Assembly (NCBI GenBank): GCA_016215405.1
Contig: JACRJQ010000007.1
Span: forward strand, 150,298-214,297
Length of the DNA stretch: 64,000 nucleotides
Source: Candidatus Tayloriibacteriota bacterium
GTDB taxonomy: Bacteria; Patescibacteriota; Minisyncoccia; Phycocordibacterales; UBA6065
Direction: 5' to 3'
Positions 25,026-35,152 of the stretch are shown here, piece by piece. The notes under the pieces were generated by a model. It did no database searches. It had not been told where the DNA came from and saw only the letters and a list, made by a program, of their open reading frames with translations. The position numbers were made by a program, and so were the translations under genes. Position 1 is the first letter of the stretch; each line of letters starts with the position of its first letter.

Positions 25026-25098
25026 GTGTCCCCACGTGGAATCGAACCACGATCTCAGGCTCCGGAGGCCCGCACTCTATCCGTTGAGCTATGAGGAC
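25026..25098 (-). tRNA. tRNA-Arg (anticodon CCG)
   Basis: Cloverleaf: acceptor GTCCTCA/TGGGGAC, anticodon loop CUCCGGA, T-arm CGTGG-TTCGATT-CCACG. Confidence 0.85.
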
Positions 25099-25139
25099 GC
25101 TGCTTCATTTTAAACCTCTTTCCTGATATTCTCACTGCA

Positions 25140-25215
25140 CCCCTTGTAGTTCAATGGATCAGAACACCGGACTTCTAAGCCGGCTATGCAGGTTCGATTC
25201 CTGCCGAGGGGACCA
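25140..25215 (+). tRNA. tRNA-Arg (anticodon UCU), CCA encoded
   Basis: Acceptor CCCCTTG/CGAGGGG, D-arm GTTC...GAAC, anticodon loop CUUCUAA, T-arm GCAGG-TTCGATT-CCTGC, ACCA 3' end. Confidence 0.85.
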
Positions 25216-28185: not shown

Positions 28186-28965
28186 TTACCTCGTCCTCTG
28201 CAGGACGTAGGGGTGCTCCATATCGTGGTGCAGATAATGCGGCCCGCAATTGCATGGCCGTTTGCCGCACCGATAATGCGGCCCCGAATACTTCTCGGAA
28301 AGGACCGTATCGAGATCGACCTCGAGCATTCCCGAGATCACCAAGATCCACGAGAACACGTCGGCGAGCTCGTGCGAGACGCTTTTGCGCATGGCTTCGA
28401 GTTTCATACCGTGCCGGTGGATGTCGAGGAGCTGGGCGCTCGACGTCTCGCCGATCTCCTCATACAGGCGACCGATGACGAATTGCATCCCGTTCTTCCG
28501 GTTGCCTTCGCCATAGACCGCCATCAGATTCGCGGCCCAGTCGTTTGCAGACCAGGCGAGCTGAATGGGGTCGGGAGGGGCGAGGACGATGTCTTTCCTC
28601 TTTTCGATGTGGCAGGCGCAGACGGGCTCTCCGCAATACGCACAGCGGCCCGGCGGGAACTTCTCCCGCATCGCATCGACGACGGGAAGGTCCCTGAATT
28701 CGTCGGCGACGGCGCACGTCCAGCTGAAGAGGCTCGCGAGAGAGCTTTCGAGATTGGGCTTAGAGGACTTCTTGCGCACATGCTTCGCGAAGATCCTAGC
28801 CGCTTCGAGGAGGAAGAAAAGGCGCTGGCCCTTGAGATACATAGCGTTGCGCTGGCCAAAGAGCCCGCGCAGATCGTCAATCTGGCTTTGGAGGTTCATG
28901 GTAGGTTTTGGGTTCTGCGACCACCCTACTCCAACACCACGAGGAAGTAAATCGAAGAGGATCAC
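28186..28965 (-). CDS. MazG-like nucleotide pyrophosphohydrolase domain protein with Cys-rich inserts
   Basis: ELADVFSWILVISGMLEVDLDTVLSEKY resembles the MazG EExxD/E helix; CxxC...CxC and CxxxxCxC clusters. The start may be the internal MNLQSQ. Confidence 0.45.
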   Translation of the reverse strand: MILFDLLPRGVGVGWSQNPKPTMNLQSQIDDLRGLFGQRNAMYLKGQRLFFLLEAARIFAKHVRKKSSKPNLESSLASLFSWTCAVADEFRDLPVVDAMREKFPPGRCAYCGEPVCACHIEKRKDIVLAPPDPIQLAWSANDWAANLMAVYGEGNRKNGMQFVIGRLYEEIGETSSAQLLDIHRHGMKLEAMRKSVSHELADVFSWILVISGMLEVDLDTVLSEKYSGPHYRCGKRPCNCGPHYLHHDMEHPYVLQRTR

Positions 28966-28992: not shown

Positions 28993-29086
28993 TCATTTTG
29001 GGTGCCGTCGTGGCGGGAATTAGAAATAGAATGAGGTTTGAAAATCCAGCCATTCCCTCTCTTAAATGAAATAATTGAACCTCGTC

Positions 29087-30064
29087 TCAAGAGAGACTCT
29101 TTTTTATTTCTTTTAAAATTGTAGTTTCATTTTGATCGGGCGGAAATATCTGTCGAAGAGAATAAGGGAAATAACCTTTAACACCATTCCATATTCCTGC
29201 GTATTTACTCACTTCCCATGAACCGAAATGAGAAGGTTTTCCCTCGAGTTTATTTTTGACAATCTCAGGATCTGTCGGATTCACAATGTAAATACTGAGA
29301 CCGTATTCTTGCACACCCTTTAGCAGAATGTCGTTTATATGCGCGTCACCAAATCCATACCCAATCACAAGTAATTTCTTATTCTTTTCAAAGATCTGAC
29401 CCATAAATATTTCCATGTACCATTTCAACAATGGCTCCTGAGAAATGTTTTCGGATTTGTTCTTACCAATCACCATCTGATTACCTCCATTGGAGGAGGC
29501 CCAAGCATAGGACCCGTGTAATTTTATATAACTCGAATTATTTAAGTCTTTTTTTGCAGGCTCAGCCTCCTTGGGGAGGATGGCTTTTTTGGCATTTCCT
29601 TTAATTCCATAATCAAACACCTGTGCAACACCAGGAGAGCGATAGTCGTGCTGTCTCTCCATAAGTAAGTCTTGATTCAGAGTGAAAAACCAACCGCTCT
29701 CTGATCCCCTTTGGGATAAAAAACTCAACAAATCACCAAGCCCATAGATATTTAGAGCAAGAGGATTCTCCAAATTAAATGTCCAGCCTTTTATCGAGTC
29801 ATCAAGGTCTTTATATGCATCCTCCACGGCAACTCGCACCGCTTCTTTTGCCTCGGGTGTGTAGCGTCCTCCTGTAAGGACTATTGAATACACCGACTCA
29901 AAATCAAAGTCCTTCAATAACAAATCGCGCACATCAGGAATTGCCTGTAAGAGGGGGTTATTGAAAATTTTTGACCACATTTCACGCGCAAGAAAACCAC
30001 CAAAATTATGTGTGAAGCCGGCACCTGTTAGCAAAAGAACATTTCTCTGCATAGATTTAGTCAT
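29087..30064 (-). CDS. SIR2-like (SIR2_2 / DUF4020-type, ThsA-like NADase) domain protein
   Basis: LLLTGAGFT (cf. ThsA FAGAGLS), KLHGS (cf. KMHGD), VIGYGFGDAHINDIL (cf. VGFSFTDPNLDYIL). Start ATG 30062-30064 overlaps the upstream gene's stop (ATGACTAA). Confidence 0.8.
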   Translation of the reverse strand: MTKSMQRNVLLLTGAGFTHNFGGFLAREMWSKIFNNPLLQAIPDVRDLLLKDFDFESVYSIVLTGGRYTPEAKEAVRVAVEDAYKDLDDSIKGWTFNLENPLALNIYGLGDLLSFLSQRGSESGWFFTLNQDLLMERQHDYRSPGVAQVFDYGIKGNAKKAILPKEAEPAKKDLNNSSYIKLHGSYAWASSNGGNQMVIGKNKSENISQEPLLKWYMEIFMGQIFEKNKKLLVIGYGFGDAHINDILLKGVQEYGLSIYIVNPTDPEIVKNKLEGKPSHFGSWEVSKYAGIWNGVKGYFPYSLRQIFPPDQNETTILKEIKKSLS

Positions 30065-31505
30065 CGTAATCGCGCCAATTCTGCTTATCGTATTTTCCCC
30101 TTTCAACATATTCTACAAGCGTGTCGTAGAAAAAACGCGCATGGGCAGAACGATCACCTTCATTCAAATACCAGCCATTCTGCGTTCTTTTAATCTTATA
30201 GGTTAACCAATCAGAATTCTCGTTAGTCCCTTTCGGAATTAATCTCTTCAACATCGAATTTGAATATTCCGAGAAAAGCCACTGCCCCTTGTCATCAGAT
30301 GAGGAGGCGTTTGCCCTCACTGATCTAAGCACCTTTAGAAAAGTCTCTTTATTTCCATAAAGAGCGATTAATAACTTAATAGCAATATCTATACATTGGT
30401 TCCTACCATCCATGAAACTGTCCCTAATAAGGGCGCCCTTTTGTACCTCAACAAACTTATGTTGTATTGGTTTATACAGCTGGCGAAGGCTCACGTGACC
30501 CAAATCAAATGCCTTAAGTAACACCTCCTCCAAAAGATGTTTGGTTATTCCACTTCTACCCAGCGCATCTTTGAGATTTGGCTCATCATATTTTATTTTC
30601 TGGATGAGATCAGGTATTTTTTCAATAACTGCCTTTTTGTTATCGAACTCAAAGGGTTTAACGGTGAAGAATTTGTCGAAATAACCACCAAACTCGGTTG
30701 ACTCACCGTATCTGTGATGAAATATGCTCTCTACGTTCTTAATGTCAGCCACAATTATTATGTGATCGAAACCAAATTTGTTGTCTTCCTCACCTTCCAT
30801 CTGGGCTGATAACACGTTCAGTATGCGGAATATATGCTCGGGATCGATTCTGTCGAAGTCGTCCAATATCAAAACGCTTCTCTTTCCCGCTTTGTTGTTT
30901 TTTATCTTCTCGATCAGCAAGTGACTAAGATGATCGGTTGCAATCGAATCGTCAGACAATTCGATCTCCTTTATGAATTTATCAATAACGCCCTTATCAC
31001 CAGCTTGAAATTCTCTTTTAAACTCTTGGAATTTCCTGTCGAACACGAGCAAGTCTTTTATAGGCCGACCTAGTTTGCTCAATGCCTGTACTAATGGGTC
31101 TGGAGACAGGGAGAGCGCCGCTTCAGTGGTGCCAACGATTGATTGAAGCGTTGAGTTTATTGACCCTCTTTCTTTGCAAAAAGAGAGAAATAGCCTAGTA
31201 GAATCTTTTATGCCCTTGGAAACATTACCCTGAAAACACTCAGGGTCCTTTTTAAGCAGTTCTACTAAAATATCGTATTTTAGTAGATTAATTATATTTT
31301 CATTTGATGAAATCTGATATCTGACTGGATACAGATGATAGACATCATATTTTTCTTTAAAACCATCAAAGAAAGTCTGTAGGAAAAAAGTCTTTCCACA
31401 CCCAAATTTGCCAGAGAAAAAAATACGCCTGTTTTTCTCTTCAGATAAAAAAGCTTCAAATTTACTCTTTGGTCCGTCTATTGAAATAAGGTTTTCTTGT
31501 TCCAT
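30057..31505 (-). CDS. KAP-family P-loop NTPase
   Basis: Walker A FSGKFGCGKT and KAP-type Walker B VLILDDFDRIDPEHIFRILNVL. Start placed at MEQENLIS (ATG 31503-31505) because the upstream ORF extension overlaps a tRNA-like structure. Confidence 0.78.
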   Translation of the reverse strand: MEQENLISIDGPKSKFEAFLSEEKNRRIFFSGKFGCGKTFFLQTFFDGFKEKYDVYHLYPVRYQISSNENIINLLKYDILVELLKKDPECFQGNVSKGIKDSTRLFLSFCKERGSINSTLQSIVGTTEAALSLSPDPLVQALSKLGRPIKDLLVFDRKFQEFKREFQAGDKGVIDKFIKEIELSDDSIATDHLSHLLIEKIKNNKAGKRSVLILDDFDRIDPEHIFRILNVLSAQMEGEEDNKFGFDHIIIVADIKNVESIFHHRYGESTEFGGYFDKFFTVKPFEFDNKKAVIEKIPDLIQKIKYDEPNLKDALGRSGITKHLLEEVLLKAFDLGHVSLRQLYKPIQHKFVEVQKGALIRDSFMDGRNQCIDIAIKLLIALYGNKETFLKVLRSVRANASSSDDKGQWLFSEYSNSMLKRLIPKGTNENSDWLTYKIKRTQNGWYLNEGDRSAHARFFYDTLVEYVERGKYDKQNWRDYDD

Positions 31506-31511
31506 ATTTGC

Positions 31512-31609
31512 TGCGAGAATGGGGATCGAACCCATATTTTTTCCTTTCAAGATATTCAACAATGTGAGTACCTTGAAAGGGAAATGTGCTACCGTTACAC
31601 CATCTCGCA
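31512..31609 (-). tRNA. tRNA-like element: tRNA-Glu(UUC)-like cloverleaf with a 28-nt insertion after the anticodon loop (possible intron-containing or degenerate tRNA)
   Basis: Manual fold: acceptor TGCGAGA/TCTCGCA, D-arm GTGT-AACGGTA-GCAC, anticodon arm TTTCC-CTTTCAA-[28 nt]-GGAAA, T-arm ATGGG-TTCGATC-CCCAT. No CCA. Confidence 0.4.
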
Positions 31610-31625
31610 ATATCACTTTGATATC

Positions 31626-32156
31626 TCAGGTCATCAAAGCGATGAGCTTCTCAAGGTCCACAATTTTTTTCTTTTGCGAATCGACGAGTGTTTTCGGAAA
31701 TACTTTCTCATATTCAGTAGGGTCGTTGCGGCGTTTATGGTCGATGTATTTTGATTCGAATTCCGACTTGCACCATGCTGATGTTTTGTCTGAATAAGAC
31801 TTCCCGTCATTAAGTATTGAGAGAAGCACTGCCTCCAAGCAGGGTGTAATCTCAATAAGCTCAATGCCTCTTTCTTTTGCTTGCTTTCGAGCTCGCCTAA
31901 TTTCCTCTTCGCCCTTATCGTTATCAAGGACAACGACCTTGCGATCAAAGGCCCCTGGAATCTTGTCCGCATCCATAACCACATTCTCTGGTGCGCCCCC
32001 TTTGCCTTTTCGGATAGTAACGGCAACCCCAGTATCCCTCGAATAAATAGATTTGAGATATTTAAGGAATACCTCTTCGCACATCCCCTCCCCAAAAACC
32101 AAAAGCATCCTACTTGCGACACGTCGTTTATGCTTTTGTGGATTTGAGCGAGACAT
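31626..32156 (-). CDS. RloB-like / DUF4276-like Toprim-type small protein (partner of an AAA_21 ATPase)
   Basis: N-terminal MLLVFGEGMCEEVF (E-G-x-x-E) and VVVLDNDKGEEE (DxD) in Toprim-like spacing; 176 aa; 9 nt downstream of the ATPase gene. Confidence 0.5.
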   Translation of the reverse strand: MSRSNPQKHKRRVASRMLLVFGEGMCEEVFLKYLKSIYSRDTGVAVTIRKGKGGAPENVVMDADKIPGAFDRKVVVLDNDKGEEEIRRARKQAKERGIELIEITPCLEAVLLSILNDGKSYSDKTSAWCKSEFESKYIDHKRRNDPTEYEKVFPKTLVDSQKKKIVDLEKLIALMT

Positions 32157-32164
32157 GAACGACT

Positions 32165-33370
32165 TTAGATCTTAGGCACGGCGCCATAAGCACCTGCAAG
32201 GTACTTGGTGTAGTAATTGTCATCTGCTCGAACGCCCTCCATCTCGTCGAGCCGCCAAGATTCGCTCATGCCCTTTGAGTTTTTCTCAATCAGAATGATC
32301 TGATATTTATCAAGCTTACTCAATATCTGATGACTATGTGTACTGAATAGAAGCTGAGCGTTCTTCGGATTTAGCTCTGGTTCGATGAACATATCGAAGA
32401 GCGCCAACATCATGTCAGGATGTAAGCTGACGTCGAATTCATCCAATACCGCAATACCTCCTTTTTCGAGGGCAACAAGAATGTGTTTAAGAAGCACGAA
32501 GAGCTGTTTGGTGCCCGAGGACTCTTGATCAAAAGGTAGATTAACCTTCTCGTCTCCAAATGAATGTGAGACGGAAACATTCATGAGAAAATCGTTTGGA
32601 TTTTTTGATTTTTCTATTTCGAAGGCATTAAGGCCCAGATCAAATCGAGACAGCATTTTTTCGGCCGCTTTCTTGAGTTTGTCGTTTTCACTATAAAACT
32701 TGAAAGCCATAGCCTGTTGTATTGTGTTGTGAATACCGTGACCGCCAACCCAACCCACAGGTCCGACGTTTGTCTCGAGTTTCTGCCAATAATTTGCTAT
32801 ATCCTGGCTTTCTTTGTGATTGAGTCGTATCGCGACCGCAACTACACTCGCATTTGAGCGGAGTAGTGTCTCGGATCCCTTTGGGAGGTCAAAGTTTGCA
32901 TCATCAAGTTCATAGGAGTTAATACCTTCGTTCCAAGATCGAGAAAACATCTTTTTATTCGATTTCTTCTCGTTAGCCATACTTACCAGGCGAAGGTCCT
33001 CAGACGTAATCTTATTTTTGTTCAGTGTGAAGCTGTAAGTATAAACACCCCTTTCTATCTCAAACACTACTGATATCTCTGTGGGCAAGCTCTTGTGTTC
33101 ATTCAAGGCAAAGCAATTTATCGGCAAGGCCTGCTGAGGATTCATTTCAAATGAATCAACGATAAGCCACTTTAAAAATGGAATTACTTTTAGAAGATTT
33201 GTTTTACCCGAGGCATTGGGTCCTATGATCGTTTCGACTTTTGAGAGCCGTGTCCCAAGAGGGGTAGTAAAGTAAGAGTTATTCTTAGGCGCATTATCGT
33301 TCACAACAAAACTCAGAGTGTTTTCCTCACCCAAAGAATAGAAATTCTTGCAAGAAATTGAATGTATCAT
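32165..33370 (-). CDS. AAA_21-type ABC ATPase (RloA/AbiLi/OLD-ATPase-like)
   Basis: Walker A GPNASGKTNLL, Walker B/D-loop IAVLDEFDVSLHP, H-loop FSTHS. Confidence 0.8.
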   Translation of the reverse strand: MIHSISCKNFYSLGEENTLSFVVNDNAPKNNSYFTTPLGTRLSKVETIIGPNASGKTNLLKVIPFLKWLIVDSFEMNPQQALPINCFALNEHKSLPTEISVVFEIERGVYTYSFTLNKNKITSEDLRLVSMANEKKSNKKMFSRSWNEGINSYELDDANFDLPKGSETLLRSNASVVAVAIRLNHKESQDIANYWQKLETNVGPVGWVGGHGIHNTIQQAMAFKFYSENDKLKKAAEKMLSRFDLGLNAFEIEKSKNPNDFLMNVSVSHSFGDEKVNLPFDQESSGTKQLFVLLKHILVALEKGGIAVLDEFDVSLHPDMMLALFDMFIEPELNPKNAQLLFSTHSHQILSKLDKYQIILIEKNSKGMSESWRLDEMEGVRADDNYYTKYLAGAYGAVPKI

Positions 33371-33596
33371 GTTTTTATTGTGGCCTTTGCTTAATCGGTA
33401 CTATACCTCTATATACGAATATTGCAAGCTTTTATACATAAAATTGTATAAAACGACACAAAAATAGTTAATTGAATACGGCTTAAGAAAGTAGGGCTTT
33501 ATTAAGCCACCAGATAAGGGTCATTTGAGAGGGTGCGCCAGAATTATAAAAGCCAAGAGAGTACTCGTGAAAACTCTTGGAAGGGTGTAATTGATT

Positions 33597-33945
33597 TGTA
33601 GAAACTAATCAACCGCTCGCGCAAGAATTATCTCCCTCGGAAGATCGACACGCCAAGTTCGTTGAGCTTACCCAGAAGACGTTCGAGTTCGCCGCCTATG
33701 CTCACAAGGCTTTTATCGCTCCAAACGCCGATTCAATGCTTAAAAGGGAGATATTCCTCGCACTCGGTAAGAACCATTCGATAACGGGCCAAATACTTCG
33801 AATAGAGCCGTATGAATGGCTCGAACCTATAAAGTCCTGCTACCCAGCCTTGAAAGCTGAATATGACGCGTTGGAACTCAATATACCCGACAGTTTGGCG
33901 CGAGCAGAGGCATTAGCTCAAATTCGTACCACTTGGGGTGGCTAG
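33597..33945 (+). pseudogene. open frame without ATG start until 33736 (possible 3' remnant of a gene disrupted at the island boundary, or small gene with non-canonical start)
   Basis: Reading frame open from the TGA at ~33594 to the stop at 33945 (≈115 codons); only the Met-initiated part (33736..33945) appears in the ORF track. Confidence 0.25.
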
Positions 33946-34084
33946 AGAGATCACGGATACGTTTATCAATTCTTACAGAATCTGTACACCTTTCCCAATT
34001 CTTCGGATGGAAATCCTCAGAATTATGGGAGAAGGTTTTCGATTCTCTCACGCGAGCCGCCCCGGGCTCGCTTAGCCATCCACT

Positions 34085-34108
34085 CAAAAACCCGCTCGCG
34101 CGGGTTTT
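34085..34108. terminator. bidirectional terminator hairpin downstream of tRNA-His
   Basis: aaaaacccgc-tcgc-gcgggtttttt. Confidence 0.6.
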
Positions 34109-34114
34109 TTCGTG

Positions 34115-34186
34115 GGTGGCTAGAGAGAATCGAACTCTCGATATCGGTTCCACAAACCGAAGTTTTACCACTAAACTATAGCCACC
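34115..34186 (-). tRNA. tRNA-His (anticodon GUG) with the extra 5' G-1
   Basis: GGTGGCTA...anticodon loop UUGUGGA...GAGTTCGATTCTCTCTAGCCACC. Confidence 0.85.
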
Positions 34187-34349
34187 ATATTTACCGAGTC
34201 AGCCGAATCTTTATAGCAGATTTAGCCTGAAAAATCGAGGATTCGGAAGAAGAGAGGCCTTGAGTGTAAGAATTTATGAAGACTTTCCCTCGACTCGAAT
34301 TTCGGCAGCGCGCACAAATGAAAAGAGGCCTTGCGGCCCTTTTCATTTG

Positions 34350-34433
34350 TGCGCGGGAGAGGACTTGAACCTCCATGCCTGTGAAGGCGCTACCACCTCA
34401 AGGTAGTGCGTCTGCCAATTTCGCCACCCGCGC
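34350..34433 (-). tRNA. tRNA-Leu (anticodon GAG), long variable arm
   Basis: GCGCGGGTGGCGAAATTGGCAGACGC...CUACC-UUGAGGU-GGUAG...long variable arm...GGTTCAAGTCCTCTCCCGCGCA. Confidence 0.85.
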
Positions 34434-34485
34434 ATTTCGAACTTGCCAAGGCATAATAGCCGAAAGCCTCCTTATTTTCAAGCTC

Positions 34486-34510
34486 AAAAGAAAAAACCCG
34501 CTTTCGCGGG
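34486..34510 (-). terminator. rho-independent terminator downstream of rplS
   Basis: Minus strand ccccgc-gaaa-gcgggg followed by TTTTTTC. Confidence 0.6.
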
Positions 34511-34517
34511 GATTTCC

Positions 34518-34949
34518 TTATTTCGCTGCGACAGGGGCTTCTGCGGCCTCCTCCTTCTTCGGCGACTTCACCACATCGGTGTTGCCTCCCTTTACGGATC
34601 GGAGATTTCGCATCTGGCGGCGGATCTCCTTTGCTGCCTTCTCGCGGACGAAGTAGAGCTTCGAGCGGCGGACCTTCGAGCGGCGAATGATCTCGATCTC
34701 GTCTATCGTCGGGGAGTAGAGCGGGAATATCCTCTCTACGCCGATGCCGTCGACCGACTTTCGGACGGTAAACGTAGCGCCGGCCTCGTCGCCGTGCTTC
34801 CTCGAAAGGATGAGTCCCTCGAACGCCTGGAGTCGGGTCTTATCGCCTTCCTTGATCTTCTGCCATACGCGGACGGTGTCGCCGGAACGGAGCTCGAGCT
34901 TTCGGCGAGCTTCCATGTCTATAGGCGATGTGACTACTTTGCTTTCCAT
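34518..34949 (-). CDS. rplS: 50S ribosomal protein L19 with Lys-rich C-terminal tail
   Basis: [32 protein letters not shown]...TFTVRK L19 signature. Confidence 0.9.
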
Positions 34950-35070
34950 GAGTTTCTATTAATTAACGTGGTCGTTAATCTAACATAACGGCCCGAAATG
35001 AGCAAGAAAATCGGCGTTTTCTTGAAAATGTGGGCGAAATAGGCTATCGTTCATCTGTTTCCCGCTATAT

Positions 35071-35143
35071 GCGCCCTTAGCTCAGTTGGTAGAGCAGCTC
35101 ATTTACACTGAGAAGGTCGGGGGTTCAAGTCCCTCAGGGCGCA
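35071..35143 (+). tRNA. tRNA-Val (anticodon UAC)
   Basis: GCGCCCTTAGCTCAGTTGGTAGAGC...anticodon loop UUUACAC...GGGGGTTCAAGTCCCTCAGGGCGCA. Confidence 0.85.
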
Positions 35144-35152
35144 CAAATTTGA

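Follow-up and report, generated by a model that had tools for sequence, protein, structure and literature searches.

Overlapping KAP NTPase and SIR2 genes in a patescibacterial defence island are most likely independent neighbours rather than a dedicated two-gene system

Among described defence systems, the SIR2 domain is joined to other parts in several ways. In Avs5 (AVAST type 5) it is fused N-terminally to a STAND NTPase and a C-terminal sensor in one polypeptide; in DSR1/DSR2 and in Thoeris ThsA it is fused to a sensor (a large C-terminal domain or SLOG), or paired with the TIR protein ThsB; and in SIR2-HerA (Nezha) an ATPase gene adjoins a separate SIR2 gene. KAP-family NTPases, for their part, can act alone: single proteins made up of a KAP NTPase and an uncharacterised C-terminal region were shown experimentally, in a 2026 study, to protect against phage, with protection depending on the Walker B motif and on the C-terminal region alike (PMC13552941). 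The same study describes Tmn as a YobI-like transmembrane P-loop NTPase (PMC13552941), and QatA is indexed under ‘KAP NTPase’ in literature searches. Here we analyse a 64,000-nucleotide (nt) stretch of a Candidatus Taylorbacteria (Patescibacteria) genome (GenBank assembly GCA_016215405.1, contig JACRJQ010000007.1, positions 150,298 to 214,297; hereafter ‘the window’), in which a gene for a KAP-family NTPase overlaps a gene for a SIR2 protein. An initial annotation, made from the sequence alone, had proposed that the two constitute an undescribed anti-phage system. The evidence below indicates that each is most likely a single-gene defence in its own right, the two lying side by side by chance.

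The genes and their junction, in window coordinates, are as follows.

29087..30064, minus strand: SIR2_2 protein, 325 amino acids (aa), ATG at 30064
30057..31505, minus strand: KAP-family P-loop NTPase, 482 aa, ATG at 31505
30057..30064, minus strand: 8-nt overlap ATGACTAA of the KAP stop codon with the SIR2 start codon, read directly

Both genes can be taken as real because full-length homologues of each are on record by the hundreds (813 for KAP and 1802 for SIR2, E ≤ 1e-3). In the window's list of open reading frames (ORFs), the full KAP frame from its first GTG spans 30057..31616 and the full SIR2 frame 29087..30109. The KAP start at 31505 is consistent with the N-termini of 30 homologues; an alternative ATG, preceded by an AGGA Shine-Dalgarno-like motif, lies 30 nt upstream at 31535. 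Reading of the junction (...gattacgATGACTAAatct; in full, gattacgATGACTAAatc) places the SIR2 ATG at 30064-30062 and the KAP stop codon TAA at 30059-30057, confirming the start/stop overlap that the initial annotation had reported. Such an overlap is not distinctive, since closely spaced or overlapping genes are usual in this compact genome: by an approximate set of gene calls, coding density across the window is ~91%, and 20/38 same-strand adjacent pairs overlap or lie ≤30 nt apart.

The finding that bears most directly on a dedicated pairing is that each family occurs without the other everywhere else sampled. KAP loci were collected by a profile-seeded scan with one genome per species, and the 80 loci listed span Patescibacteria, Bacteroidota, Gammaproteobacteria, Clostridia and a DPANN archaeon; the 87 SIR2 loci (84 metagenomic or genomic, one viral and two from further look-ups) encode proteins with 36-69% identity to the window SIR2. 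The SIR2 family was found in 0/116 other KAP loci drawn from genomes, metagenomes and viral contigs, and, within 6 kb of KAP, in none of the 80 loci listed; conversely, the KAP family was found in 0/87 other SIR2 loci searched within 5 kb. Even among the nearest homologues of either gene (60-69% identity), the neighbouring genes are different ones. Two contigs seemingly common to the KAP and SIR2 hit lists (lengths 6780 and 16493) proved, by look-ups and blastn, to be different contigs whose lengths coincide. The dedicated two-gene system of the initial annotation therefore finds no support in the gene-neighbourhood comparison by which it was to be checked. Its companion statement, that the pair corresponds to no nameable system, stands in so far as no named two-gene system is matched, but the pair does not recur and is not to be read as a new system. 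Literature searches returned no described KAP+SIR2 system.

KAP homologues are for the most part either solitary or embedded in type I restriction-modification (R-M) operons. Type I R-M subunits (hsd) were present in 27/80 listed loci, and HsdS was the commonest family downstream of KAP (7 loci), followed by a mix that included Schlafen/AlbA_2, ResIII, Abi_2, RhuM and housekeeping genes; SIR2_2 did not rank within the top 25 Pfam families of the 69 immediate downstream neighbours scanned. In four closer relatives with long flanks (L002:1449-5700, L005, L007 and L013; 46-58% identity) the order is hsdM-KAP-hsdS, the genes being separated by 1-6 nt or overlapping by 11-26 nt. A placement inside an R-M operon is reminiscent of guardians carried within R-M loci, such as PrrC and the Rlo genes, and the frequent position of soluble KAP between hsdM and hsdS hints, at the level of gene order, at a link to type I restriction-modification. 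On the contigs of the closest KAP homologues (56-62% identity), the gene follows one for a ThsB-TIR protein and adjoins a HinfI R-M system, lies by a serine recombinase, or is without a recognisable partner. The first of these cases is the second-closest homologue (L165/L166:5072-7479, 62% identity), which sits directly downstream of genes for a 127-aa ThsB-type TIR protein and a 165-aa ‘8xMP’ protein and adjoins a HinfI-type R-M system and a LexA/S24 repressor, forming a compact defence island in a marine bacterium. Thirty IMG/VR viral or prophage contigs (L169-L198) encode more distant KAP relatives (31-37% identity) without SIR2, which suggests that the family also travels on phages and prophages.

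The SIR2 family lacks a conserved neighbour. The closest relatives adjoin DUF2726, DUF4238 or unknown genes, and clustering of flanking ORFs revealed no recurrent neighbour, duplicate contigs aside. Among 29 tightly linked same-strand neighbours there was no NTPase; these comprised DUF2726, DUF4238, DUF4145, a methylase, an M48 peptidase, HicB, a resolvase and unknowns. A conserved partner downstream was also considered and rejected, the 259-aa ORF that follows SIR2 in the window being unrelated to the 262-aa gene that follows its closest homologue. Moreover, many members of both families stand alone: if isolation is defined as opposite-strand genes or gaps >150 nt on both sides, 42/94 KAP loci and 21/52 SIR2 loci are isolated. 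Both families are patchily distributed.

The SIR2_2-type assignment made initially is borne out. The translation matches Pfam SIR2_2 (PF13289) with 36.9 bits (gathering threshold 24.5, E 4.7e-9) and carries the three motifs quoted for it, GAGFT, KLHGS and GYGFGDAHIN. Across 26 aligned family members, T13-G14-A15 and N20 in GAGFTxN are invariant and G16 is kept in at least 90% of members; TLNQD (T128-D132, with N130 and D132) and KLHGS (K181-S185, with H183) are invariant; and in GYGFxDxH, G235, Y236, F238, D240 and H242 are invariant, with G237 kept in at least 90%. The family profile matches the SIR2 subunit of SIR2-HerA structures (8yhx, 3e-12; 8j4u, 3e-9) with the same motifs aligned. An AlphaFold 2 model (predicted local distance difference test score 85.7) consists of a single Rossmann-type domain with a helical insertion, and its top 44 Foldseek matches in the PDB (E ≤ 1e-3) are all anti-phage SIR2 proteins, from SIR2-HerA, SPARSA, KomC, DSR2 and ThsA; classical sirtuins enter the list solely at E > 5e-3. 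The match to NCBIfam NF042942 (SIR2_antiphage) reaches 36.4 bits against a cut-off of 500. Motifs and model mark the protein as a SIR2 of the defence type, in which the active site is intact and no sensor domain is appended; it is predicted to be an NAD+-consuming (NADase-type) defence effector. It is an ordinary full-length member of its family, without an extra interface segment. One 519-aa relative (P0189, 50% identity) carries a ~190-aa N-terminal extension without a Pfam match, which might be a sensor or regulatory region fused to the SIR2 domain, or else the product of a miscalled start codon; P0189 was rejected as a Rosetta-stone SIR2 fusion, as the extension holds no Pfam domain and is not an NTPase.

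The KAP-type call is likewise confirmed. Pfam KAP_NTPase (PF07693) matches residues 30-283 with 33.7 bits (gathering threshold 20, E 3e-8), many homologues have a precomputed PF07693 match, and the Walker A motif GKFGCGKT and the Walker B motif LILDDFDRIDPEHIF (LILDDFDR), both quoted in the initial annotation, are present in the translation. Across 25 family members G35, G37, K38, T39, D215, D216 and R219 are invariant, and D218 is kept in at least 90%. No transmembrane helix was found: the maximum 19-residue Kyte-Doolittle mean is 0.99, with no window above 1.6, and soluble helices are predicted for the segment that separates the two Walker motifs. The fold resembles switch ATPases with an AAA+/STAND-like core, followed by a helical or winged C-terminal region that is poorly conserved and variable; a sequence search of the PDB returned nothing significant. 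Like the SIR2 protein, this is an ordinary full-length family member with no extra interface segment. Pfam searches, the SIR2 structure model and analysis of the KAP C-terminus revealed no recognisable effector domain in KAP and no recognisable sensor domain in SIR2.

Set against described systems, the KAP protein most resembles stand-alone defences. It shares with EF_KAP (PMC13552941) and with PDC-S20, a single-gene candidate in PADLOC, an N-terminal KAP NTPase (Walker A, DDxDR Walker B), a C-terminus without a recognisable domain, and a defence or mobile context, although EF_KAP has transmembrane helices and the window family is soluble. PDC-S20 matches the window KAP weakly and partially (22.6 bits, E 1.5e-5, residues 160-343), and 24/25 family members match its hidden Markov models (best E 1.1e-9), which have no curated cut-off; the scores suggest a relation that is real but weak, between related families rather than clear membership. 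No paper mentioning PDC-S20 was found in literature searches. Tmn is likewise a single-gene KAP/YobI-like P-loop NTPase defence, but the window KAP lacks the transmembrane insertion, has no PADLOC Tmn match, and matches Pfam YobI-ATPase faintly (16.8 bits, below the gathering threshold of 27).

For the SIR2 protein the nearest system is SIR2-HerA, both by profile and by fold (Foldseek 5e-9, TM ~0.55), and the arrangement of an ATPase gene adjoining a separate SIR2 gene is common to both. The window partner, however, is KAP/AAA+-like rather than of HerA/FtsK type, with no HerA match in PADLOC or Pfam; moreover, the window SIR2 is ~60-100 aa shorter than that of SIR2-HerA, its NCBIfam score falls far below the cut-off, and the pairing is not conserved. 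RADAR differs in that neither an RdrB adenosine deaminase nor a PADLOC RdrA match is present here, RdrA being ~800 aa long as against 482 aa for KAP; the partner in this locus would instead be SIR2, in a pair that is not recurrent. Avs5 is a single polypeptide, whereas the window has two ORFs with the NTPase upstream of SIR2, and no PADLOC Avs match. Unlike Thoeris, no island protein has a TIR or SLOG domain, the window SIR2 being a bare single domain. Membership thus holds for KAP_NTPase, for SIR2_2 and, in the genes upstream, for AbiL; it fails for SIR2-HerA, Thoeris, Avs5, RADAR and a KAP+SIR2 system.

The two genes lie at one end of a low-GC (guanine plus cytosine) island, whose other features are listed here.

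29000..34113, no strand: low-GC island of ~5 kb, ~40-44% GC, horizontally acquired, abutting the 3′ end of tRNA-His
31626..32156, minus strand: AbiLii/RloB-like protein, 176 aa (Pfam RloB 35.3 bits, gathering threshold 31.5; PADLOC AbiLii 40 bits)
32165..33370, minus strand: AbiLi, an AAA_21/AAA_15 ABC-type ATPase, 401 aa (PADLOC AbiLi 245.3 bits, E 2e-73; Pfam AAA_21 96.9 bits, above its Pfam threshold)
33936..33950, plus strand: 15-nt sequence GGGTGGCTAGAGAGA, identical to the 3′ end of tRNA-His (34114-34128), from a repeat search
34114..34185, minus strand: tRNA-His (GTG), from ARAGORN

The low-GC island recognised in the initial annotation is upheld by composition: positions 29001-34000 have 40-43% GC, against 53-63% elsewhere in the window and ~57% for the genome, and GC content at third codon positions (GC3) is 0.39-0.46 in the four island genes, compared with 0.76 in the flanking 259-aa ORF. 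Its defence context likewise holds, in view of AbiL upstream, KAP relatives in type I R-M loci and a SIR2 fold matched by anti-phage SIR2 only. Directly upstream of KAP (31626..33370), the adjacency of both components, the pairing of AAA_21 with RloB and an 8-nt gap identify, by sequence match, a complete and recognisable AbiL system (AbiLi plus AbiLii), which is absent from the initial annotation; this likeness concerns the upstream neighbours and not the KAP-SIR2 pair. A possible AbiLii-KAP link was considered at the locus of a close KAP homologue (L168) and rejected, the 174-aa gene upstream of KAP there being unrelated to AbiLii.

The island most probably stacks three independent modules: AbiL, a solo soluble KAP switch NTPase and a solo single-domain SIR2. 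Against this reading, several observations would fit a two-gene system that is functional and lineage-specific, put together anew through the shuffling of modules, in which KAP would sense infection and activate the SIR2 NADase to cause abortive infection. The genes share a strand and have similar GC. No minus-strand terminator-like site was found at their boundary in a promoter and terminator scan, although promoter-like sites were no more frequent in that scan than in shuffled sequence; the two are probably co-transcribed at this locus, and the overlap together with the absence of an intervening terminator-like site fits co-expression and is compatible with a functional link. An NTPase without an effector domain beside a SIR2 without a sensor domain would make a mechanistically tidy sensor-plus-effector partnership; an ATPase with a separate effector has precedent in RADAR (RdrA/RdrB) and in SIR2-HerA, whose ATPase-partnered SIR2 has the nearest fold; the four island genes, with their shared low GC, possibly arrived as one block; and the locus samples were motif-seeded, with at most 80 loci listed per scan, so that rare pairs could escape. 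We nevertheless consider such a system unlikely. Co-occurrence is zero in 116 KAP and 87 SIR2 loci, closest relatives included, both families are often monocistronic, and neither protein has gained an interface segment; KAP belongs to a family that matches a single-gene candidate, and the overlap itself is of a kind common in this genome and shared by KAP homologues with the unrelated downstream hsdS. The case is a caution that, in compact genomes, start/stop overlap by itself does not define a system.

That one or both genes lack a role in defence is very unlikely. SIR2 domains do also act as deacylases, and the SIR2 protein might on that account be a housekeeping deacylase or ADP-ribosyltransferase, with KAP in some cellular role; but both genes lie with AbiL in a horizontally acquired island and have patchy distributions, the SIR2 protein matches the SIR2_2 defence clade and defence structures ahead of any classical sirtuin, and KAP relatives are embedded in R-M operons and carried on the 30 viral or prophage contigs. 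Less probable again is a composite operon-level system of AbiLi, AbiLii, KAP and SIR2, acquired as a block, in which the ATPases would jointly control SIR2. The four genes are on one strand at short intervals (8 nt between AbiLi and AbiLii, 120 nt between AbiLii and KAP, -8 nt between KAP and SIR2), are similarly low in GC, and have no convincing internal terminators, and in 7/80 listed loci an AbiLi-like ATPase is encoded at most 6 kb from KAP. These matches, however, are generic AAA_21 ATPases common in defence islands; AbiLii was found in 0/80 listed KAP loci, AbiL is a recognised, self-sufficient two-gene system, and no sampled locus elsewhere combines these families.

Under the preferred reading of three independent modules, a defence island of ~5 kb would have been acquired horizontally and inserted beside the tRNA-His of this genome. 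Upon activation, the SIR2 protein would hydrolyse NAD+ and so arrest the infected cell, by analogy with related enzymes and as its motifs suggest. Lacking both a sensor domain and a conserved partner, it would probably be activated through self-assembly or a direct phage cue, as are the filament- or ring-forming SIR2 enzymes that it resembles. KAP, for its part, would be an ATP/NTP-driven, AAA+/STAND-like switch with a fast-evolving C-terminal region, through which a phage component is probably recognised; the protein may act alone or with neighbouring R-M machinery, in the manner of the published stand-alone KAP NTPase defences.

The evidence shows an ordinary defence island built of familiar part types, and it is likelier that the two families, the solitary 325-aa SIR2 and the soluble KAP found in R-M operons, each provide an uncharacterised single-gene defence than that they form a new pair. 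Both families are large, and a bare single-domain SIR2 family without a sensor raises the question of how SIR2 is kept off. The locus is also an example of a defence island (AbiL, KAP, SIR2) in Patescibacteria, whose genomes are reduced. Were the pair nonetheless a true system, it would amount to a soluble KAP/AAA+-like NTPase gating a bare SIR2 NADase in trans, on the plan of RADAR or SIR2-HerA but built of new components; SIR2 NADase effectors would gain a new class of ATPase partner, with defence-module shuffling caught in the act.

One border of the island shows a probable trace of insertion at the tRNA. The 15-nt sequence GGGTGGCTAGAGAGA has only two exact copies in the window, 178 nt apart, the inner one within the island border; the duplication is probably an att-site remnant from integration at the tRNA, and tRNA-His is the likely integration target of the island. 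A far-end att repeat was sought and rejected, other matches to the tRNA-His 3′ end in the window being at chance level and none near 29 kb, and no integrase gene is present in the island. Between AbiLi and tRNA-His lie ~740 nt (33371-34113) of mostly non-coding sequence with ~44% GC, containing a short ORF (33736..33945) whose extended frame (33604-33945) has no Pfam match; this spacer may be the decayed remains of the element's integration module.

Just outside the opposite border, in host DNA, is the 259-aa high-GC ORF (28186..28965, minus strand), which carries the paired Cys motifs CAYCGEPVCAC and CGKRPCNCGPH and has no match in Pfam, PADLOC or NCBIfam. The island is flanked by core genes, namely those for ribosomal protein L19 and for VIT1 (VIT-family) and PG_binding proteins. 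The region is bracketed by two small tRNA clusters, Arg-CCG/Arg-TCT (25026-25215) and His/Leu/Val (34114-35144), and the second of these borders the island, which fits a tRNA-targeted insertion.

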